Position numbers and translations under genes: made by a program | Shown here: piece after piece, positions 2,688 through 38,896 of the stretch | Layout of the letters: the number at the start of each line of letters is the position of its first letter | Numbering within the stretch: position 1 is the first letter of the stretch | From: Psilocybe cubensis | Taxonomy: Eukaryota | Reading direction: 5' to 3' | Assembly: GCA_017499595.2 (NCBI GenBank) | Contig: CM039005.1 | Span: forward strand, 1,736,001 to 1,800,000 | Length of the DNA: 64,000 nt | The notes under the pieces: generated by a model | Told to the model about the DNA's origin: nothing | Seen by the model: the letters and a program-made list of their open reading frames with translations, nothing else | Database searches by the model: none

Positions 2688-4343
2688 ATGTCAATAGAAG
2701 TGCCAAAAATCAAACTTAACAATGGTGTCGAAATTCCGGCAGTTGGATTAGGTGAGCTTGTCGTGCGCCAGTTTCTGATTGGCGGAGAAATGTCAACTTA
2801 CGAGGGGCTCCTCGCTTGTGTCTTTAGGAACGTGGCAATCCAAAGCAGGAGAGGTTGAGAAGGCTGTGGAATACGCCCTCAAGGAAGTGGGATACCGTCA
2901 CCTTGACTGTGCTTGGTGAGAAACTGGACCAATCATGCGCTGTATTCGTGATATTGCTGACCCTGCGACCCTTTTTCAATGTTAGGGCTTATGGGAATGA
3001 GAAAGAGGTCGGCGATGGGATTCGTGCCTCTGGTGTCCCTAGGTCCGAAGTATTTGTAGGTCCCCGTTTTATCTCGCGAATTAGCACAAGTGACTGATTA
3101 TAGCTCCTATAATTGTTTCTTCTCACATACAACAGATTACCAGCAAGCTGTGGGGCACTTGGCACAACCGCGTCGAAGAATGTCTTGACCAAACACTCAC
3201 CAATCTCGGCACAGATTACATTGACTGTATGTGTGTATCTCTTCATTTGGAGATACAAACTCTAAATATCGCCGTTAAATTTTGTCAGTGTATCTTATTC
3301 ATTGGCCAGTACCATTGAATCCCAAGGGGAATCACCCTGTGTTCCCCACGTTACCCAGCGGTAAGCGAGATGTCTACCACGAGTGGGACTTGAAGGATAC
3401 TTGGAAGCAAATGGAAGAGCTCGTAAAGAAGGGTAAGGATAGACGATCACTTTGATATCGTGTGTATTCGCCTCACAATCTAAAATCTTATCCAGGCAAA
3501 GTTAAATCTATCGGAGTGTCCAATTTCTCGGAAGCCAAGCTCGAACTAATCCTGCCTACGGCAACGATTATTCCTGCCGTTAACCAGGCAAGGGAAAAAA
3601 TGTCAAACTGAGACGCGGATGTTCTAATGACTCTGTTCTGCTCTGCTATTTTACAGCTCGAGATCCACGTGTACAACCCACAACATAAGCTCCTTAAGTA
3701 TCTCAAAGACAAAGGGATCGCGGTCGAGGCTTACTCACCATTGGGCTCCACCAATTCCCCATTGTTTACCGACGATGTCGTTGTAAGTATAGCATCGAAA
3801 CACTCTATTCAACCATCGGATGTATTACTGGGCTACCTACGTACGTTGTATTGACGCATTAACATCACTCCGTTGATTGACACTCATACATACACACATA
3901 TTCCCTCCGTGAACTCAGTCGCAAAGGACATAATCATCCTGCCGAAATCCGTCACTCCTGCGCGCATAGCCGCAAACTTTGGCCCTGCCGTTACAGCCGC
4001 CAAAAAGCTGGACACTGCCGACATCGAGCAGCTTGACGGGCTCGCGGCTGCCGGAAAACAGAAGAGGTCTGTGCACATCTTTTCCCGCGTTCTGTCCTGT
4101 GCTCTTTTAGCGAATAAGCAGCCTTCAATTTTTCTTTTTTTTCCTTTCTTTCTTGCCATTCGCTGCATGTTTGCTGACTATTTTTGTCCCCAGATTCATC
4201 ACTCCCCCTTGGCGTACGTTATTCCACTCAGACGTCGGGAATTATTTGGATTTTCTGACCGCTTTTTTTTTTTCTTGCTTTTCTTCTTTTTCGTTACAGC
4301 TGTCGATCTCGGCTTCGATAATTGGCCTCCTCTTCCAGCCTGA
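2688..4343 (+). CDS. Aldo-keto reductase, GAR1-like (putative NADPH-dependent D-glucuronate/D-galacturonate reductase), multi-exon
   Basis: Spliced reading [31 protein letters not shown]...DCAWAYGNE...TSKLW...[26 protein letters not shown]...IGVSNFS...AYSPLGS...[11 protein letters not shown]...[16 protein letters not shown]. The AKR catalytic tetrad D/Y/K/H is present. The AKR family call is secure; the GAR1 subfamily call is from memory. Confidence 0.95.
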
Positions 4344-6133
4344 TAGTCGGGGATGAAATTATGTTGGTCGGATCCTTTACCAACTCTGATAAATGTCGTC
4401 ACAGAACGGAGACGTTGAATACAGTTGAATTAGAAGAATTTGAAATGCAAAACCCATTCTGGACGAGTATGAACCCCTCTGAACCCCAAAAGATATCTCC
4501 GCTCTCAACTCATCAAGTTTACTTTTCATTTGTTGTGTGTAAAACTAACTAAACTCATTTGAGCACTGGCTTGATTATCTGCCACTCATCTATTCATTAA
4601 TGAACTATGAATACTTCATTTGACCAGAGATAAAGCTATAAAATGCTAATTTTAACCTGAGGCGTCATTGAAATCTGTTCGACAATCCTGTGCTTCAACT
4701 AGCTGATGCTCCGTATGTTTTGGATTCCCAAAAGTCTGGAATTTGTTCCTCAATCGCGCGAATATCACGGAGCCGCACAGAACACACACATCGACACGGA
4801 AGCGTCTAACCCTTGAGAAACTGAGGACGGAGCAACTAAGATGGGGGGTGAGAGAAAAAGAAAAAAACGCGTATGTAAGCGTTTACAGCATTAATCTACG
4901 TGCCAATTAGACAAGAAATTTGAAACTTTGAGATTACTGGATGGAGCTCCTATCAGTGGTATCATCAAGTTATATATGAACTTGGGAATTGTTTAGGCCA
5001 GACCTGCACATATTATGACGGTGTGGTAAGCAGTGCTCTGCAAAGCCGCGCCTAATAATACTCTGCCCACGCTCGGCCATCCACAAGCTTCCCAGAGGGT
5101 TCAAGCCCGATTGCCGAAAAGAGGCTGCGAGAGAGGCTCAATCTCACTTTGACGATCTTCGATCCTCAGGGACCTCGAAAATGAAGTGGTGCTTGGGACC
5201 GACCGACGCTCTAAATGTACCGACTATTACCTTCTTTGAGAGATGAGCTGAGAGGAGTTTGAATGGAGACATGTCAATGCGCTTGGAACCGTTAGATGGA
5301 GTTGGGTTTAGAGCTTGTCGAGTGTGACTGCTAGGAGGCTATATAGCGGAAGTTATTCGGGAAATGCAGAATACAGATTGTCGTGTTTTGTAATTGTTTC
5401 CAGCCAATTTTTCCAGGATCCAGGCTGCGATGGATGTCAAGTCGCTATGGAATAGCAGGTAGTTAATATGCTGGAGTTGGATGCGTTTAACCCATTGAGA
5501 ACGGGCAAAAAGATGAGCAGAGGAGTAGACCCACCCTGATCTGACGATGATGGTCAGACTTGAGGTGGATAAGATCCTGTATTATTCTTAACGTTACTGA
5601 ATGGCCGAGTCTCGAGGAACATTGTAGAAGTGGATCACCCTGAATGGTCAGGAGGAGAGTGTGGGACGGATGACTAGCGCTAGATTGTGAGGGCGGGGAA
5701 CTTGGAATTATAATATCCAAGAGGAGACTGTGATTATGGCAAAGGACGAGAGTGCCCTGACAACACGTGGCAACGGGCGCGTGGCGCTCCCCTGACTGTC
5801 TCTGCGAGATCTCGAGTCTATCTGGAGGTATGTACGAGCAAGTCCAATTGCAATCCCAACTCATATGATCCTACAGTTCATGAATATATCCGCAGAAACA
5901 AACTGAAACTTCAACTTGCCAACCTTATATTGCATCTTTAGCTGCGAGAGTATTGATTCCGTCTCAATCGCCGATTGGATCAGCCCTTTGAAATCTGTGC
6001 TCGCCCCTACTCGACATGATCGTCCGAGCGATCTCTCTGCCAACCAAGGGACCTCATAAAAGGCCGATAGTCTTTGACGATATCACCAGCAAACTACTCC
6101 TCCTCGTCTTCGACCTCTCTACTCCTCTCTAAA

Positions 6134-7443
6134 ATGCCCAGCGCTCCCAGCCAGAACCCCGGACGCGACCTCGACGCGACCTCGGACGCCATCGATGATG
6201 GTATGTTTGATTAGCTCTGCCGTGCATAATCGAGCATTGACGCATCTCGCTTTGCAGTGAACGTCATTAAAGGAAAAATGTGGAACGAACAATCAGAGTT
6301 CGACGAAGCGAAGGACAAGTCAAAATTCCGCGACTACGAAGCCGCTTGCGACCGCGTCAAAAACTTTTACAAGGAACAGCACGGTACGCGCTCATGCGCT
6401 CGCTGTTTCGCACGCGTCGCTAAATGACTCTACAGAAAAACAGACGGTTGCCTTTAACATCAAGGCGCGCGTCGACTTTAAGAGCCGAAAACGGGCTCGC
6501 ATGGGCGTATGGGAAGCGATAGAGTTGCTAAATACATTGATTGATGACTCCGACCCTGATGTAACTGGCTTTCTCCAAGCGACTCTTCCGTGTACTGATG
6601 ACGTCAATACTATCTGCAGACCAGCATGACCCAGATTGAGCACTTGCTGCAGACAGCTGAAGCTATTCGACGAGACGGAAAACCCGAGTGGATGCAGGTA
6701 ACAACTTTTATTATTATTATTCTCCATTCTCGCCCGGATCCTGACTGTCATCAAACAGTTGACTGGGCTGTTGCACGACCTTGGGAAATTGCTGCTACTC
6801 TTTGGATCCGAAGGACAATGGGACGTCGTTGGTGTAAGTCTCTCTTCCAAATTGATACGGGGGTCATATGGACTGACGGAGCTCCTATAGGACACTTTTG
6901 GTAAATTTCCTTCCAGACAACTACCCTGCAGACGGTGGTTCTAAATTCTTTCTTTGTGCAGTCGTTGGATGCAAGTTCTCTGACAAGATCATCTACCCTG
7001 AAACGTTCAAAAACAACCCCGACTACAACGATGCCGTATACTCTACTGAATACGGCATCTACAAGCCGCACTGTGGCCTTGACAATGTCATGCTTTCGTG
7101 GGGACACGATGAGGTACGCGACCCCACTTGAATCGCTTAGGCGCCTGAAAGTCTAACACCGGTATTTGACATTTAGTACCTTTACAACGTCGTCAAGGAT
7201 CAATCCACTCTCCCCGCCGAGGCCCTCGCCATGATCCGCTACCACAGTTTCTATCCATGGCACAGAGAGGGTGCCTATGCCCACCTTATGAACGAAAAGG
7301 ACCTTCAGGTTCTCGAGGCTGTCAAAGCTTTCAACCCATATGACCTCTACAGCAAAAGCGACGAACCTTGCGACGTCGAAAAGCTCCGCCCGTACTACCA
7401 AGGTCTCATCGCCAAATTCTTCCCCCCCGTCATCGACTGGTAA
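6134..7443 (+). CDS. MIOX: myo-inositol oxygenase, multi-exon (includes a 10-nt microexon at 6891-6900)
   Basis: Motifs [75 protein letters not shown] and [11 protein letters not shown] carry the di-iron ligands and substrate-binding residues of MIOX. Confidence 0.97.
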
Positions 7444-8060
7444 TCGCCAAAAAACCACCTCAACTCCTAGAAACTCGCGTGCATTCATAAATCTCACTAT
7501 TCATCATCATCATCTTGCTGTCGTCGCTTTTCCACTCTCATGATCTAGACTTTTTTTTGGTTATTTTTTTGCTGTCCTTGCTGTTTCTCCTGTCACATAA
7601 TTCTCTCTCTTTCACTCCTTCTTGATGACCTCCATACTACTACTATTAGATGTCGAAGCTTCCTCATCCTACCACTGTAGCGTCAGTCTCCTAGACCAGT
7701 ATTATTATATCTAATCGTTGTCGTACTTATTTAGACCCTATGTATCAAACACCCTTTGTCTTGCTATATACCTCGAATTTAAACTCGTGTTGACCGCTCA
7801 CATCATTGTCGATCCCCTACAAGTACACTGGCACCCACGTTCGCCGCTCGGAAGAGCAACGGCAAGTTGTCGGCAAAGACTAATGACGTTTTGATAAGAT
7901 AAAATCTGATATGCGGGTGCAATTTGTCATCGTCATCGATCCAAATTTCAATTGGCATCTTTGGCTTTAGCTTTTATCCCCAAAGTCCCTGAACGGACCC
8001 CCCCTTCTTCCCCTCTCATCTCCAGGAAATATAGATTTTCTCTCCTTAATCTCTACCACG

Positions 8061-9942
8061 ATGTCAGAGCAAGCTCCAGAAAGCACGCTCCCATACCCAC
8101 CTCTCCACCAAGACAAGAAGTTCATCGTTCTCTCCGATTGGTTGGTCTGCATGCAATCTTGGAATTCACATCACTTTCCAACACTCTGGGCTCATATATT
8201 GCTTTGCTTTTTTTTCTGTAACCTGGCAGGGATGGCACGATCACCACGCATGATTCAAATGATTGTACGTCACACCCCAACTGGCAACACTGCTGCTGCC
8301 TTCTCGACAAGAATCAATTAGTTAGCATTGCTAAAATAATCTGTTTGATTTTTTTTTCGTCGATCAATGGGTTTTTTTTGCAGATATGACCGATACCATT
8401 GGTTTTGGAAAGGAGAAACGGAGGGCAGGCAACCTCGAGATCCTGGCAGGGACCGATAATTTCAGGTAAGCTTTTGGCTTGCATAAACACACATATATAA
8501 GCGCCCGAGAAGCCTCTTGCCCTTCGGCAAGTTTACTCGGTGCATACATACATCCACACATCCATACTACATCATCCACATCGGCATCTTACGTTTTGAC
8601 AACAACAGAGATGGATTCCGGAAGATGCTGGCCAGTGTCGCAGCAAACGGACATACCTTTGAAGAATGCAAGGAGCTGCTCCGAAAAAGTACGTCAACAC
8701 ATATCATCCATGAGAGATCCACACCTTTCCTCCCGTCCCACCGGTTTTTTTATTCTGTCGGGTGATGATCCTGGGATAACTGATGAGGTTCTCTCCAGAC
8801 ATCAAACTAGATCCTGGCTTTAAGGAGTTCTACGCCTGGTGTAAAAATAACGATATCCCTGTCATTATCGTATCCAGGTGCGTTCTCGGAGCAATCAAAG
8901 GGGCTACCATATTTCGGGTGACTGATGCAAACGCGTTGCGGTTTTTCTTTTTTTTTTCAAACATCATGGCGCACAACCCACATTGTTTTTCCCAAAAATC
9001 CAAAATCCAAAAATAAATTCACACACGCACACACGTACCCATCCGTCCACACCACACAGCGGAATGGCACCCCTGATTCGAGCAGTTTTGTCTAATCTCG
9101 TAGGCCAGGAAGACGCCGATGAGATTGAGATCATTGCAAACGACGTGACCGTCTTCCCCGACGGCAAGTGGGAAATCAAATACAGACATCCATCCAGGTG
9201 AGTCCCGAAACTCCGTCTTCGGTCTGAGCAAAGGTGCAGCCAAAAGAGCAGGGAAGAAAGACCATGAGCAATAATGGGAGCACCGAGCAAGGGAAAAAAC
9301 ATACATATTCAAATGCATGGATACATGCTCACAAGCTGCAATCGCGTCCATTTCGAAATAACGGACGCACGCGCACGCAATAGCTAATTAACGCTAATCA
9401 CCTGCCATGGCCTATTTCACGATATTTTTTTTTTCACCTAATTTATGAGAATGAACCACTGACGCCAATAATTCCCCATATGCCACAGCGGATTCGGACA
9501 CGACAAGTCGCAGGCGATTCTCCCATACCGTAAATTGCCGGAACCGCCCACACTCTTTTTCTTTGGCGATGGTGTATCAGGTAAAGTTGATTTTCCTCTC
9601 CTTTCTCTTAATGATACATCGCAGTGGGGTGGATTGCTGATCTGGATTGTCACCTCGGTCCACTCTCATCTTTAAATTGAACACATACAAACCGCAATTT
9701 ACGCCTAAACCTCTTTCTGCGGACGAAAACGGGAAAATAAACACACGACTGCAGACATATCGGCAGCCAAATACGCCGACGTTCTGTTCGTCAAGACCAA
9801 GCTCGATGGGGAAAACGACCTTGCGGCGTATTGCCAAAGGGAAGGCATCAAGCACGTCCTGTTCTCGGATTTCTCAAAGGCGTTGCCTGTGGTGCAATCC
9901 GTTGTGGAGGGAAAGAAAACAATCAACGAGGTGGTGGTATAA
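8061..9942 (+). CDS. HAD-superfamily phosphatase, PYP1/YNL010W (MtnX-like) family, 8 exons
   Basis: HAD motif I LSDWDGTIT..DSNDYMTD, IKLDPGFKEF, motif II IIVSSGM, GFGHDKS, motif IV FFGDGVSDISAA. All seven introns are GT-AG and keep the frame. Confidence 0.92.
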
Positions 9943-10805
9943 CGGGCCTCACCCGCGCGCGCCCGCCGTCATTCTGGTTATAGCGTTGGTGTCTCGCCCA
10001 TTCATTCGCTTTAAAGATAGAATTTTGGACAGAAATGGTGCTGCAATCCCATAGTTAGTGGGAGACCAAGAACCCCGAAGTGCAGACAGCATCATCGTTA
10101 TCAAGAAAGTAGATTTATCATGATCAGTTGGATGCATATAACCACAAATACATACGTAGCTCAAGACAGAGTTCATAAAATAAGGTGGCGCCTGCGAGAG
10201 GAGTCGAATCAAGCTTGACTGCCCTGGTGCGCAATCGGTTGCCACCCAGAGCGCCGATCACGCGGAAACCAAGGGGAGAGGGACTCAGCACCGGGCAGAG
10301 GGATCTATAGTAAATTGAAATCGGCGATCAAGGCCACGCGAATGGACCCTCGAGGAACGATTCACGGCAAGAAAGTATATGTGCGTAATGCCACGTTTTC
10401 GCAATGTTTTGCAATATATCTGGTCTTTTCGTCCCCAGTGATGATCTCGAACTTGTACTGTTGTTTAAAAGGTCTCTCTGGTAATTCTGCAGTATGGACT
10501 GGCCCAGGAGCAAAAGGCCTAGGCGCCATCGCGATCAAAAGGACACGATTCTCCGGCCAGCAAGGCGCCATGCTGGAGGTTGTTTTAGGGTTGACATGAT
10601 AGGATACGAAAGTGGGGCGTGCATCCATGAACGAACAAAAATGGGGAAAAGATCATTGGATGCGGGATGTGAGATGATGATGACGAATAATGCTAAACAT
10701 GGATAAGAACGAGGCAGGTAACTTCGTGATGCATCTGGGAAATCGGGAGGGTAACTGTGCAAGCGATATGAGATACGGCAGGTCGAAATTGCGAGTATGA
10801 TCCCT

Positions 10806-12974
10806 TCATGAGCCCGAAGATAGACCGTTCATTATCTTTTCGCTCATTCCGGCCAATGCGCCTCCTACCCACCCGCTGACGCGCCTCCAGTCTTTATGCC
10901 CCCGACCTTCAGCGATCCCATATAATAACCCATGGCTCGGGTGCGCATTGCGCGCCTTGATGCCATACACCGCCATTGCCACGCCGAGCACCAGCACCGT
11001 CCCAGCCAACATTGTCTTCTTTTCCATCTGTCCGAAGGGAGATTTTCTGAGCTTGCGTCGTTTCCGACGCGACTTTTTGCCACCACCTGGCGATTTTTCG
11101 TCTTTATCATCAGAAGATCCTTCTTCCTTTTGATGCGGGTCTATCTCCACGTAGGGATATACGACCAGCTCAGGGTGCGATACCATAGCTTCGGCCGTAT
11201 TGTCTGAAGGTAGCTCCGAAAACGATTCTGACCACGTAAAGACGACACTCTGGGGACCCATGATTGACGACAGTGCGAGGCCTGGATGAGATGGCGGAAA
11301 CTCTTTGTATAGAGCATCAGCACGCCGCAGAAGGTCGGTCAGGTAAATCCTCTCAGGTTTATGGTGGATAGTAGAGACGATGTCGCAATCATGATTTTCC
11401 TCTTTTGTTGGCTCGTTAATAGGTGGGCTTAGTTCGACTGGCGGTATTGTCTCCGATAGCGGACGAGTGCTTTGATCAGCATCTTCTTCTTTCGGCTGAG
11501 TTTCGTCGCGTTTGTTGGATAGTGAATCATCATCGTGAACATGTTCAAGAGGGGTTGCGTTTCCGGTGTTATCCGAGATACCTTCGTGACTGTTTGTGGG
11601 CGAAGGGGAATGGCTGCGAGAATCGGGTAATCTGTTCCCATCGTTTTGGACATAATCCATTGGATTTTCTGATTCCACTTTCACTGTGGAGTCAACGTAT
11701 GGGCTTGAGTTATTCAACATAATTTGATCTGGATCATTCTCCTCTTTGAAAAATGTATTGCTGGTGTCAGCCTCGGGCGACTCGTCGGATTTCCACGGTG
11801 TTGGCCGTATATCTATGATATCTTCCTCGTCAATGTCGTCCGCGAGGTTCGGTAAACTGCTGAGTAGTGAATGAATCATGCCATCTTCGTCTTCCTCCTC
11901 CAATCGTATGACCTCCTTTTTACGCGAGAGAATAACCTATAAGATATTGTGATAAAAGACACTGTTGAAGTAACACCGAAAAAAGATACATACAGCTGTT
12001 GCTAGATACACGACCGCAATAGGGGGACGGCAAAATAGATAATCAAAAACGTGTTGGATGAGTGGCAAAGTTGGTATATCATGCGAGAATAGGGTCAATA
12101 AATTAGAAAGCGCGTAAAAAGGCAGCGGGGAATTTCTAAAAAATTAAGATTTTAGACAACTGTTGCCGAGCCTTTTGAAAGATGTTCTACCGCACCTTTC
12201 CAGAAGCTGGGCAAACTCAGGATCTGCAAGATGGAGAAGTTTGCTGGTTACCCTTTTGGAAAAAATAACATGTCAGGACTCAAATTTTGAATTTTCTGCA
12301 CGACCAAAGGTACCTTAGCAGTCCAAGCACAGGTTCCAGTCCGGACCCCATCGAATCTCTGAGTCTGTGTAGGCTCAACTTCTCGGCGCACACTAGCTGC
12401 ATTTCGGGCGGTAATGTCAAAAATAGGACAGTAACAATATCATGGTATCCCTAATGCAAAAATCAACAGAAGGTCAGCAGCATGAATCCCTGCATATGGA
12501 TAAGAGTGGACCTGAAAATAACTTAGGCGCGGTCGTTTGCGAAAGATAGACACAAGCAGCTTGTGCAGCTCTGCCTGTAATGTTTCTTTGTCGGTATTCG
12601 AATCTACATGGGTCAAATCAGTTTCCATTGACGAGAGAAGGATGCATCATTCCCACCCACTGGATAGAGAACGAAACTGCGGTCTGTGTCCAGCCCGATC
12701 TGTCGTTCATCTTGATGTACAACTTCGTCTTTAGATTCAGTCGGTCTGCGGGATTTTTCGTCTGCAAAATCTTTGGGTTTTGCTACATTCAATATCTTCG
12801 GCCTATGCATAGCTTAATGTTGAGCAATAAAGCAGGCGAAATTCCAACAGACCATAGGTCAACACGTTCGTCTCCAAATCCTCCCTTTTGAAGGCTTCTT
12901 GCACGTAAATCATTCCAATCTATCTTCTGGTGCTTGTGTTTTCTGTGAGTTGCGGAGACATTATCTACGGTCAT
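10806..12974 (-). CDS. TBC-domain Rab GTPase-activating protein, Gyp8/TBC1D20-like, with a C-terminal transmembrane segment
   Basis: Arg finger QIGLDTDRSF, Gln finger YFQGYHD, LRDSMG, YALSNLLTLFSHDI. An acidic linker and a polybasic patch precede the hydrophobic helix MLAGTVLVLGVAMAVYGI. Confidence 0.9.
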
Positions 12975-13121
12975 GTATGCTGTCGCCTAAACGTGGTTGG
13001 CTAAGATACCAGGTCGCTGAAGGACAATGAAGCGGAAGGACAAGATGGAAGGCTCGAGAAATGTGACGACGTCATGTCACGCATGCTTGACCGGTTTGAC
13101 GGGCCGTTATACAGCTTCACT

Positions 13122-15156: not shown

Positions 15157-18100
15157 TCATGACCTCAAAATCATACTACTGCCTGTATCCCGAAAGTAGG
15201 AGGTGGATGGCGATGGAGACGGCGGAAAGTTGGAGCCACTGCGGACGGATAGGTTGGGGCTTCCCTCCCTACTTGCAGGGTACACACCTTCCTTAGCGCT
15301 TTCCCCGATTCTTGCTTTGCGCCAGCGGTCCAGCCGTGTGAAGTCGAGTAAAATTTGTCTCCAGCGCTCAGTAATATCGATAGGAGTTTCGGGAAATTTC
15401 TGTGAACGCAAGGCTGGTAAATGAAAACTGCTGATCTATAGTTGAAAAAAGTGTTTTACGTTTAACCAATCGATAATGGCAATAATGGACCTCTTCTTTG
15501 CCCCCGAGTCACCCGTTGGAAGGCCTTCCGTCAGCCAAGGGCCGGGATGAATGGACCGCAACCTCGCAAAGATTGTTTCGCTCGGACTAGCCCTGACAAG
15601 ATGATACCGCCATTCTTTGTGTGATGGCCAAGTTCTCCAATCTTTCGAACTAAAAAGAAAGGAAAAAGGGAGAAAATCAGCTCAATGAAAATTGGATTGG
15701 GTATATTTTTGAAAGAAAAAAAACCCACATATCAGAGACGAAAGGGTCACAATGCTCTAAACAAATTTCAGCAGACTGGGTATGGTACTCCACCGGCGTG
15801 AAGCACCATTTTCCTGCTCTCTCGGGCTTGGTGAGGAATGCAAGCAGTGATGACCGGATCCCATGCATAGAGAGCAGAGTCTCCGAGATCATCAGCTGCT
15901 CCGGATACATGGGAGACGGAGGAGGCGATAGTGTTGACGGTGTTTTTGAGGCGAGATCACGGTTGATAGCAATACGGAACGGCTCATAGATCGTTATGAT
16001 TCTACCTCCGGTGACGGGTGTGTCAACTTGGAGAATTTGGGTATAGATATGAGTGCTTATGTCGGCGAGATCCTTCCGAATCCTATACTGTAAACCTCTC
16101 CGGTCGGAATGTCTTAAAGATTCATATTCCCGCTGTATCCAATCAAGAAGCCGTCGTGTAGCGGACCAAAGAAGATCGACGTTAAGAACAGGGGCTTCTT
16201 GAAGACACGTTTTGTCGTATGAGAGCATTTTCAAGCCCTGTATTAACTGGAACATAGGATGGTCACCGGAAGATACTGAATGAGATATGCTGATTGATTC
16301 CAGACATTTCCTCAAAATATTATCGAGGTATGTTAGAGGGTGACGCGACCTACCAATAGTGTCATCAGATTGCTGTTTTTCCAAAAAGAGTCGTGCTGTA
16401 CTGACCTTGAAACTTTGAGCCAATCATGGCGAAAGATCATACTGATGATCCGATAACAATCCAGTATGAGTCCACTGCTGCTGTCTTGAAAAAACGGTCC
16501 AGAGCGGCTTTTGTCGTGCAAAAAGTCCCTGAAGTGAGGGTTCAATAGCAGAACTACATCATCATTTCCAGATTTCTCCCCTCCAAGAGCAAAATGCTGA
16601 GCCCAAAAGGCGTTCTTCCATGTGTTAAAAAATTTACGGTTTTGAAAAAGTTGATTATCTTCGATGGAAAAGAGGTCACGTAGCCAATGAAACCTAATGG
16701 GCCCCATTCCTGTCGTAATTCCGGGAAGCTTTTCTAACAGCTGCTGAATATCATTGGAGGAAGAAAGGATGAACTTGTAGAAATCGTCGAGAGCAGCGCA
16801 AAATTTAATATATGTGGGTAGAACTGGAGAATCTGTGCGCTCCATGGCCTTTTGTGGGTTTAAGACACACTCTTGCGCCCAGTGAGAGTGTTCAGAATGA
16901 AAGTTAGTCGGGTTGAGAAGTTGTTGTCTGGTTTCTTCTTCTGTGGTTAGTATCTGTGGTAAACATAGTGTGAGCAGGCAGTAACAGGCAAGCACATATC
17001 AATTATTCGTACCGTGGCGAATGCCGTGACAATGCAATGTAGAGCATCAAATGCTATATCCCAGATAGGATCTCCAATAACTCTGGACGGAGGAAATACA
17101 ACATCGAACTTATTCAGGTCCTTCAGAACGTCTTCAACTATATCCACTTCGCAATTGTCGAGGTGAAGGCCCATATGATGTTTCAGATAACCCCAAGTTT
17201 CCTTCGTTGGGCAGTCTTCCTCGGCACCAGTTCTAAAAAAGATACCTCAGATCCTGAAACGAGAAAATTGCAAACGTACGCACCTCCAAGGACCTGATAT
17301 CCATTTCGTCATAAGATCAAACCCAGATTTTACAAGAGTGGCATGGGCAGTCGACAAGTCAACAAAAAACGTTTTGGATCGCTTTTCATCGAGGAGGAAA
17401 TCTTGGAATGAGGCGTGGTGAAAACGCAAACCACGAGTCTTGTCGTACTCTAGACGACGCTCGAAAACTCGTCTTTCCGTTTCGTCATCCGAAGGATTAG
17501 GAAACCTGATGACGGAGTGTAGACCATGGAGTATGTAGGCCACTCCTTCTGTCTCTGGGTCTAGGCCAAGTATATCATCGTATACTTCCGGTGGTTGCGG
17601 ACAATGGAGAGTAAGAAGAAGGCCAAAAATTCGTTTCAGAGTTTCGGGACTCGGGCACGTTTGCAAAATTTGAGTATAAAGTTCGTCCATGTTCGAGTAA
17701 ACATTTGTCGCATGTGTCGAAGCAAGCACTGTTTTCAACTGTGTGACGGGATGTGTGTTTTCCGCGCAAACAAATTTAAGTACAGTCGAAGCGTATAAAA
17801 ATTGTCCGCATGACTTTTTGACTAGATAATCAATGTCAGAAGGTGAGGGCCATTGACGTTTAACTTTTGACATTATCGTTGACTTCAGGGTCGTAATCGC
17901 GTTCAACCGTTCCTCGAGAAAGAGTCGAATGTCGCGTTCCGGATTGTATAACGAATCCAAGCCAATTTGATGCGTCCTAGGCGAGATCATGGGGTCCCCA
18001 AAGATATCCCGGATATGGGCCTCAGATCGACTTGTTATGATGAAACGTACTCGACGATCATAGGTGAGTAAGGTGTCGGTGATTGTCTTGATAATGCGCG

Positions 18101-18814
18101 TCTGAATTTCATGACTTTTACATTCGTCGAGTCCGTCGATGATAACGAAAGGAGTTGTAGAAGGTGGGGTTGACAGTTTGCTGAGGGGTTCAAAAATGAG
18201 GCTGCGAAGTTGCAATCCAGGGCGATTGGAAGAGAGATGGGGATTATTGGCCATAGCGCGATCAACATTTTTGCGCATTTCAGGATCGCAAAGACAGAGC
18301 TGATAGGCCAAGGTGGTAAAAAGGCGGCTGTCGTCATCTCGACCTGGCTTTCCTCTTGAAAAGAAGAATGTGCCCCCGAAATAACGATCCTTGGGTTCAC
18401 AACTCAAGTACAACTCTGCGATCTCCTGCATAATAGTCGACTTGCCAATCCCAGTTGCTCCGTAAATCCAGAGGACATCTTGTTGTGTTTTCTTGTCTTC
18501 AATCCATGATCTAATAGCAAGAATGATCTTTTCTCGCGTTCCTGGGTGACATCTTGCAGTCAAACCCGATGTATGAAGTGCGTCGGGGACTACGACTTTG
18601 CCCAGATTCTTGAATCCTAGAAAAAAATAAAATGTTATACACGCATCGTACAAAGATGATAATGCTCACCTTCTTCGTTCTCGTAGTTGTGAGCATGGTA
18701 GTCACCCGAAATCTCATAGCGAATGTAATCATGTCCAGCACTGACGAAATGGCTATTTTTGACTGTGACCCCTTGTGCATTCTTGAAGAAGTGGACGCCG
18801 CCATTGCCCTCCAT
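15157..18814 (-). CDS. NACHT-domain NLR-like protein, multi-exon and apparently intact
   Basis: RCHPGTRE, Walker A IYGATGIGKST, FFFSR, Walker B FVIIDGLDEC, TSRSE, GQFLYAST, HHASFQDFL. The downstream exons join in frame through GT-AG introns to ...IIDWLN/KFPETPIDITERW...stop at 15157. Confidence 0.9.
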
Positions 18815-35501: not shown

Positions 35502-36964
35502 TTGCATCGTCTATTCGTCATCAGTGTGGTCCTCAACATCCGTGCTCCCAATACATCCTTTTTCACGCCACTTCAGGTGCCCACTGCTGGCACAGCGGTC
35601 GTTCCTCAGAAAAGCGGAAAGCCCATTCCAACACTTTTTCAGCCTCTCAGAATCCGTGGAGTCGAATTTCAAAACAGAATCATTGTGAGGAAATAATGCC
35701 CCATTCATTTGACAGATACTAAGTAGCCTCTGCCCAGTTATCTCCCATGTGCCAATATTCTGCAAAGGACGGTTTTGTTACCCCTTGGCATCTCGCACAT
35801 CGTAATTTGCATTTCAAGTTTTGTAATCGATGGAGTACTGATGAATCTTCCTAGTGGGTGGAATAATAATACGAGGACCAGGCTTAAGCTTCGCCGAAGG
35901 AGTAGCCGTATTGCCAGAAGGTCGTATCACACCTGAAGACCTTGGTTTATGGACAGATGAACACGTTGAAGGATTATCAAAAATCGTCGAATTCGCGCAT
36001 TCGCAAGGCCAAAAAATGGCCATCCAGCTTTTCCATTCCGGCCGCAAGGGCTCTACCAGTGCGCCTTACCTTGTTAGCAAGGGCGACATCATGGCCTCAC
36101 CAGAGGAAGGAGGCTGGCCTGACAATGTCTGGGGACCATCTGCTATTAAATTCCATCCTTCTTATCCTCAACCTCGCGAGTTGACTTTGGAAGGTATTAA
36201 AAGGATAATTGACGCGTTTGTTGTCGCTGCGAAGCGGGCAGTTATAGCTGGTTTTGACGTCATCGAAATCCACATGGCCCATGGGTACCTGCTCTCATCG
36301 TTTGCAAGTCCGGCCAGCAACAAACGGACAGATGAATATGGCGGAAGCTTCGAAAATAGGATACGATTAACCATCGAGATCATTGACGCAATTAGAGAGG
36401 TCATTCCCAACGATATGCCGATTTTTGTGAGGTAAAGTTTCAATGTTCATCGTTTAAAGGAGGTTTTCTAATTGTTTACTTCTCAGAGTATCTGGAACAG
36501 ATTGGCTTGAAGAAGTTGCGCCTGATGAGCCGTCATGGAGGTTAGAGGACACCGTCAGGGTAGCCACAGTCTTTGCAGAGCACGGTGTCGACTTGATCGA
36601 CGTTTCGGCAGGAGGAATCGACTTCAGGCAAAAGATCCGATCAGGCCCACAATATCAAGTATTCCTTGCAGCCGCGGTCAAAAAAGCCTTGGGCGACAAA
36701 ATTCTTGTTGGGGCCGTCGGACAACTGCACGGCGGCAAAGATGCGCAGAGTGTTTTAGACTCCGGCAGCGCCGACGTGATTTTTGTAGGTCGAGAATTCT
36801 TGAAGAATCCCGGTCAGGTGTGGGCGATGGCTGAGGAGCTCGGGGTGGAAATTCAAACGGCCAAGCAAATAGGTTGGGGATTCTCAGGAATAGGCAGAAA
36901 AGGGCTGGGAACAAGCAAGCCAGAAAGAAAGGAGGATTTTGGATGGCTGAAGCGTCAAAGTTAG
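35502..36964 (+). CDS. Old Yellow Enzyme / NADH:flavin oxidoreductase (YqjM/NamA-like), copy 1; 5' end unresolved
   Basis: [65 protein letters not shown]. No in-frame ATG is present in the first recognisable exon. Confidence 0.9.

Positions 36965-37347: not shown

Positions 37348-38896
<1,549 letters not shown>

Follow-up and report, generated by a model that had tools for sequence, protein, structure and literature searches.

Positions 2688-9942 of the 64,000-nucleotide stretch of Psilocybe cubensis DNA analysed here (the window) carry an aldo-keto reductase gene (AKR), an inositol oxygenase gene (MIOX) and a HAD phosphatase gene (HAD). Our preferred reading, held with a little less than even confidence, is that the three genes are a neighbourhood conserved in Agaricomycetes and serve the catabolism of myo-inositol. 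The trio is probably a small inositol-use unit that was previously undescribed; the original prediction knew of no such basidiomycete cluster, and literature searches likewise found no paper describing one. In the proposed scheme, MIOX would open myo-inositol to D-glucuronate, and the AKR encoded directly upstream would turn D-glucuronate into L-gulonate in an NADPH-dependent step, the step of AKR1A1 in animals and of GaaA/Gar1-type AKRs in ascomycetes. Side by side, the two genes would couple production of the reactive uronate to its removal. The HAD phosphatase, encoded 0.6 kb downstream of MIOX, might be a selected third member whose substrate would be a small polyol, inositol or aldonate in phosphorylated form, although we infer this part weakly. 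It would act either by releasing free inositol or by clearing a mis-phosphorylated side product.

The region holds three co-oriented, intron-rich genes on the + strand, from the ATG of AKR (2688) to the final base of the HAD stop codon (9942). The AKR gene (2688-4343, + strand) encodes a candidate D-glucuronate reductase of 314 aa in 10 exons (2688-2751, 2828-2915, 2986-3055, 3136-3226, 3289-3432, 3496-3587, 3657-3840, 3919-4066, 4194-4213 and 4300-4343). Its intron 6 (3588-3656, + strand) is a GC-AG intron with the donor GCAAGG, and the corresponding joint (3584>3654, with 3 ambiguous letters) is present in runs X1 and X2. The MIOX gene (6134-7443, + strand) encodes a PF05153 protein of 299 aa in 8 exons (6134-6200, 6258-6383, 6436-6560, 6620-6697, 6759-6833, 6891-6900, 6962-7113 and 7177-7443), of which the 10-nt micro-exon at 6891-6900 (+ strand) supplies profile positions 107-110. 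The MtnX-like HAD-IB phosphatase gene (8061-9942, + strand) also has 8 exons (8061-8140, 8230-8264, 8384-8465, 8609-8688, 8799-8877, 9060-9197, 9489-9580 and 9755-9942) and encodes 257 aa. The spacers measure 1790 bp (AKR-MIOX, 4344-6133) and 617 bp (MIOX-HAD, 7444-8060), which bears out the predicted layout of three co-oriented genes with gaps of about 1.8 kb and 0.6 kb. The MIOX and HAD models match letter for letter the public proteins P0121 (Inositol oxygenase [Psilocybe cubensis]) and P0241 (Pdp3-interacting factor 1 [Psilocybe cubensis]), respectively. For AKR, exon 7 matches the public protein P0001 (D-galacturonate reductase [Psilocybe cubensis]) at 100% identity; relative to our model, P0001 is extended by 57 aa at the N-terminus and is missing 7 residues. 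The public accessions of the three proteins are consecutive.

The gene models agree with RNA contigs of X1 and X2, the splice evidence being the 15 joints listed out of 24. All nine AKR introns are skipped at the modelled boundaries, as are MIOX introns 3-7 and HAD intron 6 among the joints listed. For the MIOX micro-exon, both X1 and X2 show 8 letters between the joints at 6834 and 6961. The DNA-like runs X3 and X4 read straight through the introns that X1 and X2 skip. Among the differences listed between the runs and the window in the three coding sequences, 10 of 10 are synonymous (38 more lie beyond those listed). AKR, MIOX and HAD are all transcribed in both X1 and X2, under unspecified conditions and at contig depths unfit for ranking the genes.

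The expectation that the spacers hold no recognisable gene was supported by each search made. None of the 39 spacer ORFs of at least 35 aa reached the cutoff against Pfam, and a phmmer search with the longest one (5490-5870, 127 aa) found no match among 1.84 billion representatives. Rfam and tRNA searches of the AKR-MIOX spacer gave no matches. Low-level RNA contigs of X1, without X2, lie in this spacer at 5171-5470 and 5843-6098. In the MIOX-HAD spacer, the MIOX RNA contig extends to 7754 (contig records 4 and 8 span 7175-7754) and the HAD RNA contig begins at about 8041, leaving about 290 bp uncovered; a variant at 8072 lies 31 letters from a contig end.

By sequence, MIOX belongs over its full length to the inositol oxygenase family: it scored 434.4 bits against PF05153 (cutoff 25) over profile positions 1-249 of 249, and its exons tile the profile contiguously over positions 14-249. 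Residues H114, H138, D139, H209, H234 and D267, which we take to be the iron ligands on the basis of mammalian structures, are invariant in 20 of 20 aligned Agaricomycete MIOX sequences. AKR scored 145.8 bits against PF00248 (cutoff 24, E 1.9e-42), and D48, Y53, K78 and H109, the Asp-Tyr-Lys-His catalytic tetrad, all lie in the RNA-supported model. Among solved structures, AKR1B1 and AKR1A1 come closest to it (E about 1e-58 to 1e-57). The names given by the sources to its relatives vary and include D-galacturonate reductase, GCY1-like and glycerol 2-dehydrogenase. On the basis of family, source names and neighbourhood, AKR is quite likely an NADPH-dependent hexuronate reductase that converts D-glucuronate to L-gulonate. 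According to the available text of PMC6353982, D-glucuronate is also a substrate of fungal D-galacturonate reductases, which convert it to L-gulonate, and this reaction opens the A. niger pathway.

The AKR tree mirrors the species tree, and AKR is therefore an ordinary member of its Agaricales group rather than a specialised MIOX-only paralogue. Flammula alnicola has three AKR copies in one clade (97*), two of which share contigs with two MIOX copies, and a possible co-duplication of AKR and MIOX in this species speaks for the preferred reading. The ordinary orthology of AKR and its generic source names would also fit a trio with no functional coupling at all, kept as inherited microsynteny, in which AKR is a general NADPH aldehyde or glycerol reductase. 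The upstream regions of the three genes have no common k-mer of 8 or more, and the absence of such a shared promoter word points the same way. We regard this explanation as improbable because gene order is conserved over three Agaricales suborders and because of the metagenome contigs described below.

Linkage in other named genomes was judged by proxies (consecutive accessions, locus tags and fused gene models) rather than on the DNA of those genomes, and the species counted are whatever appeared among the top matches, not a systematic sample. By these proxies, 8 named Agaricales genomes have AKR, MIOX and HAD as consecutive or fused genes. Six of them are Psilocybe cubensis, Crucibulum laeve, Hypholoma sublateritium, Panaeolus papilionaceus, Pholiota conissans and Tephrocybe rancida. 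In Tricholomella constricta the AKR tag adjoins a fused MIOX+HAD model, and in Tricholoma furcatifolium a single 806-aa model comprises AKR (17-283), MIOX (329-575) and HAD (572-749). In another 4 genomes (Crassisporium funariophilum, Lyophyllum atratum, Psilocybe cyanescens and Volvariella volvacea) the three genes lie no more than 7 tags or accessions apart. At least one pair is kept in 13 further genomes. The AKR-MIOX pair is found in Amanita inopinata, Termitomyces Mi166, Termitomyces T159 (fused) and Amanita brunnescens, and the MIOX-HAD pair in Tephrocybe sp. NHM501043, Galerina marginata, Hohenbuehelia grisea, Asterophora parasitica and Hypsizygus marmoreus and, among Boletales, in Serpula lacrymans (consecutive) and Scleroderma yunnanense (fused). 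AKR and HAD are at most 3 tags apart in Blastosporella zonata and Panaeolus cyanescens. The linked genomes represent three Agaricales suborders and Boletales. The synteny check of MIOX neighbours was positive, the linkage is not confined to the Psilocybe cubensis genome, and by these proxies it is kept beyond close relatives, as is asked of a fungal catabolic gene cluster. It is not universal, however. The AKR and HAD tags of Agaricus bisporus are 371 apart, the AKR accession of Hypsizygus is 116 from MIOX, the MIOX-HAD pairs of Hohenbuehelia and Asterophora are on a different contig from the AKR match, and AKR and MIOX are on separate contigs in Sphagnurus and Gymnopilus dilepis.

A second comparison used 80 metagenome MIOX loci (28 eukaryote-like and 52 bacterial-like). 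AKR was found near MIOX in 11 of the 28 eukaryote-like loci (10 distinct contigs), and the 52 bacterial-like loci are all without it. In 10 of these 11 loci the two genes are on opposite strands, with AKR 0.9-1.9 kb upstream of MIOX; counted by distinct contig, 9 of 10 are head-to-head and in the remaining one AKR is 6.7 kb upstream on the same strand. Of the 21 eukaryote-like loci whose upstream sequence extends for 2 kb or more, 11 are without AKR, including the two intron-bearing ones, L031 and L068. On several of the AKR-MIOX contigs, MDR, SDR and GFO/IDH/MocA oxidoreductase genes join the pair in an order that varies, and the other flanks of the contigs differ (TOR, HECT, BET and CENP-S genes). 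The recurrence of AKR with MIOX in another orientation supports the two genes as a two-step module from inositol through glucuronate to gulonate, and the putative coupling of AKR with MIOX is well supported by comparison. This recurrence also argues against inherited microsynteny, as ten distinct non-Agaricomycete contigs have AKR near MIOX, nine of them head-to-head, despite their differing other flanks. Sugar-acid and polyol oxidoreductase genes alongside in shuffled order are the usual signature of a metabolic cluster.

The HAD gene was found in 0 of the 80 metagenome MIOX loci. The predicted compact pathway module thus stood for the linkage of AKR with MIOX, seen in named genomes and metagenomes, but did not extend to HAD in the metagenome loci; HAD is a conserved neighbour in Agaricomycetes only. 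AKR and MIOX alone may be the functional pair, with HAD a housekeeping gene of the Pyp1/Ptf1 type kept in place by the short spacer and rare rearrangement. The recurrence of AKR-MIOX outside Agaricomycetes, in a different orientation and with HAD absent from those loci, agrees with this, as does the distribution of the HAD family, which is a widespread, single, generic family in fungi. Nevertheless, MIOX-HAD adjacency is kept at least as well as AKR-MIOX adjacency. It persists where the AKR match is elsewhere (Hohenbuehelia, Asterophora and Hypsizygus) and in two Boletales suborders, and we consider a purely housekeeping HAD rather unlikely.

The HAD protein scored 82 bits against PF12710 and 139.4 bits against TIGR01489 (cutoff 81.55), which places it in the MtnX-like HAD-IB subfamily. 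HAD motifs I-IV are present as D26xD28 (motif I), Ser118/119, Lys171 and G191DGxxD196 (motif IV). The nearest solved structure is 2fea (E 5.8e-13). The HAD protein is not an equivalog of MtnX, the methionine-salvage phosphatase, as its scores fell far below both cutoffs (68.4 vs 303.2 for TIGR03333 and 67.1 vs 292 for NF007103). In the sources it takes its name from S. pombe Pdp3-interacting factor 1, and its Atlas neighbour is a cluster so named. Going by the source name only, the S. pombe relative is a partner of a chromatin complex. We know of no biochemical link between the HAD family and inositol.

The AKR-MIOX pair might also be biosynthetic rather than catabolic: as on the animal route from inositol to ascorbate, L-gulonate made from inositol would lead to a sugar-acid product, of ascorbate type or otherwise. 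According to the available part of PMC12337341, catabolism and ascorbate synthesis diverge at L-gulonate in animals, and fungi are said to have the ascorbate branch too. In addition, the downstream catabolic genes (MDR, SDR and GFO) were not found in the 64-kb window. However, no lactonase or gulonolactone oxidase-like gene was present among window ORFs of at least 85 aa, and the partners on the metagenome contigs are dehydrogenases typical of catabolic routes. Growth of C. neoformans on inositol requires its MIOX genes, according to the accessible text of PMC8561382. We think a biosynthetic role very improbable.

The preferred reading, inositol catabolism by the trio, can be compared with several known systems. 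The small HAD-type phosphatases include S. cerevisiae Pyp1 (YNL010W), S. pombe Pdp3-interacting factor 1 and the window HAD, for which the S. pombe-derived name alone points to Pyp1. To our knowledge, Pyp1 has no link to inositol or MIOX. The available section of PMC8466642 refers to PYP as a sugar alcohol phosphatase that had recently been identified in yeast. In the A. niger D-glucuronate pathway (gaaA, gluC, the gluD-gluE cluster and gluF), as far as the available text of PMC6353982 and PMC5306355 goes, the AKR GaaA first converts D-glucuronate to L-gulonate, and some of the pathway genes cluster and have a promoter in common. The cluster as described in those parts is without MIOX and without a phosphatase. 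The window AKR is likened to GaaA/Gar1 by the source name D-galacturonate reductase only. On the metagenome contigs, an MDR alcohol dehydrogenase lies divergent from a second reductase near MIOX-AKR; unlike the SDR of these contigs, GluD is a D-isomer 2-hydroxyacid dehydrogenase in the text seen of PMC5306355.

The animal glucuronate pathway, in which MIOX is followed by AKR1A1, has the same two-step chemistry (myo-inositol to D-glucuronate to L-gulonate) as that proposed here, and we know of no description of the two animal genes as neighbours. Alignments of the window AKR with AKR1A1 structures reach the C-terminus (E 2.5e-57 to 1.6e-55), but the aldose reductase AKR1B1 matches equally well (1.4e-58), so that sequence alone does not single out AKR1A. 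According to the available part of PMC12337341, AKR1A1 reduces D-glucuronate in animals, and the downstream enzymes of the animal pathway are typically missing from fungi. The accessible text on Cryptococcus neoformans MIO1-3 describes no neighbouring AKR or phosphatase, with no occurrence of "cluster", "adjacent" or "reductase" (PMC8561382). MIO1-3, being inositol-induced as well as required for growth on inositol in that same text, represent MIOX-based catabolism in a basidiomycete.

The DNA of the window is eukaryotic and rich in introns. We modelled from coordinates an aldo-keto reductase gene (AKR, 2688-4343, 10 exons, 314 aa), a myo-inositol oxygenase gene (MIOX, 6134-7443, 8 exons, 299 aa) and an MtnX-like HAD-type phosphatase gene (HAD, 8061-9942, 8 exons, 257 aa), all on the plus strand. 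The original prediction of three co-oriented genes was correct, and its interval runs exactly from the start codon of AKR to the stop codon of HAD; the gaps it had put at about 1.8 and 0.6 kb are an AKR-MIOX spacer of 1790 bp and a MIOX-HAD spacer of 617 bp. In single-exon homology searches, the exons of AKR, MIOX and HAD matched with 100% identity the public Psilocybe cubensis proteins P0001 (annotated as D-galacturonate reductase), P0121 (Inositol oxygenase) and P0241 (Pdp3-interacting factor 1), respectively, whose contigs have one and the same length; over their full length, MIOX and HAD as modelled equal the public proteins. P0001 has 57 additional N-terminal residues, encoded from an upstream ATG (2502-2687), and uses an alternative acceptor (region 3227-3288), so that seven residues including the catalytic His109 are absent. 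The joint 3226/3289, which retains His109, is backed by RNA contigs, and relatives of AKR begin at the 2688 ATG. A uORF of 23 codons (2648-2719) overlaps the AKR start codon out of frame and falls within the estimated 5' end of a transcript contig from sequencing run X2.

Runs X1 and X2, from one study, were read as RNA solely from their intron-skipping contigs, no run being recorded as RNA; contigs of X3 and X4, from another study, pass through the introns unspliced. Among the joints listed (15 of 24), RNA contigs splice all nine AKR introns, including a GC-AG intron (3588-3656), MIOX introns 3-7 and HAD intron 6. For MIOX introns 1-2 and the other six HAD introns, which are not among the RNA joints listed, the models equal the public ones. 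MIOX contains a 10-nt micro-exon (6891-6900), eight letters of which stand between joints 6834 and 6961 in RNA contigs. The corresponding residues are missing from P0122, the public MIOX of Psilocybe cyanescens, probably because the micro-exon was overlooked in that model. Of the differences between runs and window, those listed within coding sequences (10) are all synonymous; 38 more differences lie outside the listing. Contig depths (628/266 for AKR, 46/31 for MIOX and 48/15-39 for HAD) are unfit to rank the genes and were left unused. One X1 RNA contig (9486-11253) continues without a break from HAD exon 7 across intron 7, past the 3' end and on into the convergent gene downstream, and an X2 contig begins within intron 7 and runs on unspliced, which suggests retention of HAD intron 7 and overlapping 3' ends of the two genes. 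All four runs have an additional T after 9711.

Family assignments came from the full-length proteins, which scored 146 bits against PF00248 (AKR), 434 bits against PF05153 (MIOX) and 82 bits against PF12710 (HAD); exon-by-exon Pfam searches had given one weak match among eight AKR exons and none among seven HAD exons. The MIOX exons tile the PF05153 profile contiguously (14-54, 55-81, 82-106, 111-160 and 161-249), with the micro-exon supplying positions 107-110. The His/Asp positions of MIOX are invariant across 20 Agaricomycete sequences. AKR has residues D48, Y53, K78 and H109; among solved structures it comes nearest to AKR1B1 aldose reductase (1.4e-58) and to AKR1A1 aldehyde reductase (2.5e-57 to 1.6e-55). 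The HAD protein carries the motifs D26xD28 and G191DGxxD196 and, at 139 bits, passes the curated TIGR01489 threshold of 81.6 for the MtnX-like HAD-IB subfamily; the solved structure nearest to it is that of a Bacillus MtnX-type phosphatase (5.8e-13), followed by a weak match to phosphoserine phosphatase. As MtnX itself it was rejected, with a score of 68 against an equivalog cutoff of 303.

The claim that no recognisable gene lies between the three members also held. No spacer ORF of at least 35 aa (0 of 39) reached the Pfam cutoff, with sub-cutoff chance matches only; a phmmer search with the 127-aa ORF at 5490-5870 (minus strand) returned no relatives among 1.84 billion representatives; Rfam and tRNA searches of the spacers were empty; and the accessions of the three P. 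cubensis proteins are consecutive. X1, not X2, has RNA contigs in the AKR-MIOX spacer, at 5171-5470 and 5843-6098, and Crassisporium and Lyophyllum atratum have one additional accession between AKR and MIOX. A non-conserved element may thus be transcribed in this spacer. The three upstream regions share no word of 8 nt or longer, and two 7-mers, vs. a null mean of 1.4. No recognisable gene was found in the 2.7 kb upstream of AKR. Pfam searches of ORFs of at least 85 aa found no further sugar-acid pathway genes in the 64-kb window, and neither these nor tblastn detected oxidoreductases of the MDR, SDR or GFO families. The convergent neighbour (10806-13000, minus strand), the putative flanking TBC gene, matches RabGAP-TBC weakly, with one exon (E 0.0067); its long, low-complexity last exon (a 376-aa ORF) has no Pfam match, and RNA contigs splice away at 11936. 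Elsewhere the window holds two tandem Old Yellow Enzyme-type (Oxidored_FMN) genes on the plus strand (35845-36961 and 37832-38893), a NACHT/NPHP3_N gene on the minus strand (17250-18665), and genes for Vps39, an OPT transporter, SPC25, DUF6535, GH53, Nup96 and DUF6699.

Synteny of MIOX neighbours, which the original prediction had proposed as a check, was followed through proxies of adjacency (locus tags, accessions, fused models and shared contigs) taken from protein searches and cluster look-ups; the species are those of the top 120, 120 and 53 matches and do not form a designed sample. By these proxies the linkage recurs beyond P. cubensis, as trio or pairs, in Agaricales and Boletales. The full trio is consecutive in P. 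cubensis (KAH9478596-98), Crucibulum laeve (TFK38255-57), Hypholoma sublateritium (KJA17611-13), Panaeolus papilionaceus (KAF9051640-42), Pholiota conissans (KAF9479759-61), Tephrocybe rancida (DXG01_008190-92) and Tricholomella constricta (D9615_006924 and 006925), and is spread over at most seven positions in Crassisporium funariophilum, Lyophyllum atratum, Psilocybe cyanescens and Volvariella volvacea. Among the matches listed, 13 more genomes have pairs: AKR-MIOX in Amanita inopinata, Amanita brunnescens, Termitomyces Mi166 and Termitomyces T159; MIOX-HAD in Tephrocybe sp. NHM501043, Galerina marginata, Hohenbuehelia grisea, Asterophora parasitica, Hypsizygus marmoreus, Serpula lacrymans and Scleroderma yunnanense; and AKR-HAD in Blastosporella zonata and Panaeolus cyanescens. 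Fused gene models are direct witnesses of same-strand adjacency. They join AKR to the MIOX N-terminus in Termitomyces sp. T159 (P0104), MIOX to HAD in S. yunnanense (P0223) and T. constricta (P0265), and all three in the 806-aa P0298 of Tricholoma furcatifolium (AKR 17-283, MIOX 329-575, HAD 572-749). The linked genomes belong to three suborders of Agaricales and two of Boletales. Against linkage, the AKR and HAD tags of Agaricus bisporus are 371 apart, the AKR match of Hohenbuehelia and Asterophora is on a different contig, the MIOX and AKR accessions of Hypsizygus are 116 apart, and the genes of Sphagnurus and Gymnopilus dilepis are split over contigs. In Flammula alnicola, HAD shares a contig with one AKR copy, and the two MIOX copies lie on contigs that also carry the other two AKR copies; a duplication of the unit is possible there (the proteins concerned are P0007, P0013, P0030, P0133, P0143 and P0247). 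Judged from these sequence comparisons, the neighbourhood is real and conserved.

A FastTree phylogeny of 90 AKR rows, from which proteins shorter than 280 aa were left out, mirrors the species tree. Its starred 56-row Agaricales clade mixes AKR rows that are linked, on the same contig and elsewhere, and the three Flammula copies fall in one clade (97*). Because linked and elsewhere rows share one Agaricales clade, the AKR of the window is, on phylogenetic grounds, a normal orthologue, with duplicates being lineage-specific.

A single metagenome scan, queried with the 20-sequence MIOX alignment, gave 80 loci, on which tblastn was run locally. We called 28 of them eukaryote-like (MIOX identity of at least 59.8% and an alignment starting at residue 13 or before). 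AKR, at 39-54% identity to P0001, occurs in 11 of the 28 and in none of the 52 bacterial-like loci. It stands upstream of MIOX throughout: at a distance of 0.9-1.9 kb and head-to-head, on the other strand, in 10 of these 11 loci, and 6.7 kb away on the MIOX strand in L010. Two loci, L011 and L012, are the same (99.6%), and the remaining ones are 20-30% apart in MIOX DNA. Where the contig extends 2 kb or more upstream (21 eukaryote-like loci), AKR is present in 10 and absent from 11; both intron-bearing loci, L031 and L068, are among the AKR-free ones. Near the AKR-MIOX pair, Pfam and tblastn located an MDR zinc alcohol dehydrogenase, an SDR and a GFO/IDH/MocA protein in varying order and orientation. 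L012 reads GFO 2751-3953, MDR 4874-6049, SDR 6859-7524, AKR 8017-8881 and MIOX 10001-10891, and L008, L010, L018, L021 and L030 are variants of it. The outer flanks differ by locus and contain eukaryotic housekeeping genes (TOR kinase, HECT ligase, BET bromodomain, CENP-S and Utp12). We suspect that the eukaryote-like contigs come from ascomycetes. The group looks like a larger inositol/glucuronate cluster, in which GFO may be a candidate for the step from L-gulonate to 2-keto-L-gulonate, or an inositol dehydrogenase.

That the genes have no functional coupling whatever appears improbable to us. AKR and MIOX are arranged in two ways, as a tandem in Agaricomycetes and elsewhere head-to-head with sugar-acid/polyol dehydrogenases shuffled around them, and inherited gene order alone is therefore hard to credit. 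The association also fits known chemistry, MIOX making the glucuronate that an AKR removes. A biosynthetic instead of a catabolic role seems very improbable. Whether HAD belongs to the unit is less clear-cut. None of the 80 metagenome loci contained HAD, so it was not found outside Agaricomycetes, and we know of no biochemical link of the HAD phosphatase to the pathway. A functional unit limited to AKR and MIOX is nevertheless a doubtful account, since within Agaricomycetes HAD and MIOX very consistently remain neighbours, also in genomes where AKR has moved. We tentatively prefer to regard the trio as a selected module, at a little under an even chance. A bolder version, which we consider unlikely, makes the trio an old selected inositol-catabolic cluster, dating at least to the Agaricales-Boletales split and with a dedicated HAD, and places the enzyme converting L-gulonate to 2-keto-L-gulonate in the cluster of other fungi. 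HAD would then, for example, free inositol from its monophosphate or remove a toxic phosphorylated aldonate or polyol, and the counterpart cluster of GFO/IDH/MocA, MDR, SDR, AKR and MIOX would house the enzyme of the missing step.

Fungal primary-catabolism genes are clustered only occasionally, and conserved catabolic clusters offer a cheap route to function for generic enzymes. The chief value of this one would lie in testable enzyme assignments. It nominates one specific AKR as the candidate glucuronate reductase of mushroom-forming fungi, would tie to inositol use a fungal HAD phosphatase family whose physiological role is poorly known, and, by way of the related cluster of other fungi, supplies candidates for the missing fungal D-glucuronate step. 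According to a review, D-glucuronate is a further substrate of fungal D-galacturonate reductases, which convert it to L-gulonate; the glucuronate pathway of A. niger starts with GaaA, and the conversion of gulonate to 2-keto-gulonate is unassigned and called a hypothetical reaction (PMC6353982). In animals glucuronate is reduced by AKR1A1, and the animal downstream genes are described as typically missing from fungi (PMC12337341). A yeast sugar alcohol phosphatase is mentioned in PMC8466642.

The original prediction knew of no described basidiomycete cluster of this kind, and our literature search, whose scope stopped short of subscription journals and supplements, likewise yielded no account of a MIOX-AKR or MIOX-AKR-HAD cluster in fungi. 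As far as that search reaches, the neighbourhood is undescribed, and it is a candidate member of the class of fungal catabolic gene clusters. Among known systems, gluD and gluE form a pair with a common promoter, their products being a D-isomer 2-hydroxyacid dehydrogenase (GluD) and an alcohol dehydrogenase (GluE) (PMC5306355). In the study of the Cryptococcus neoformans MIOX genes the words "cluster", "adjacent" and "reductase" do not occur; it reports that these genes are induced by inositol and needed for growth on it, and that inositol catabolism is relevant to ecology and virulence in at least one basidiomycete (PMC8561382).
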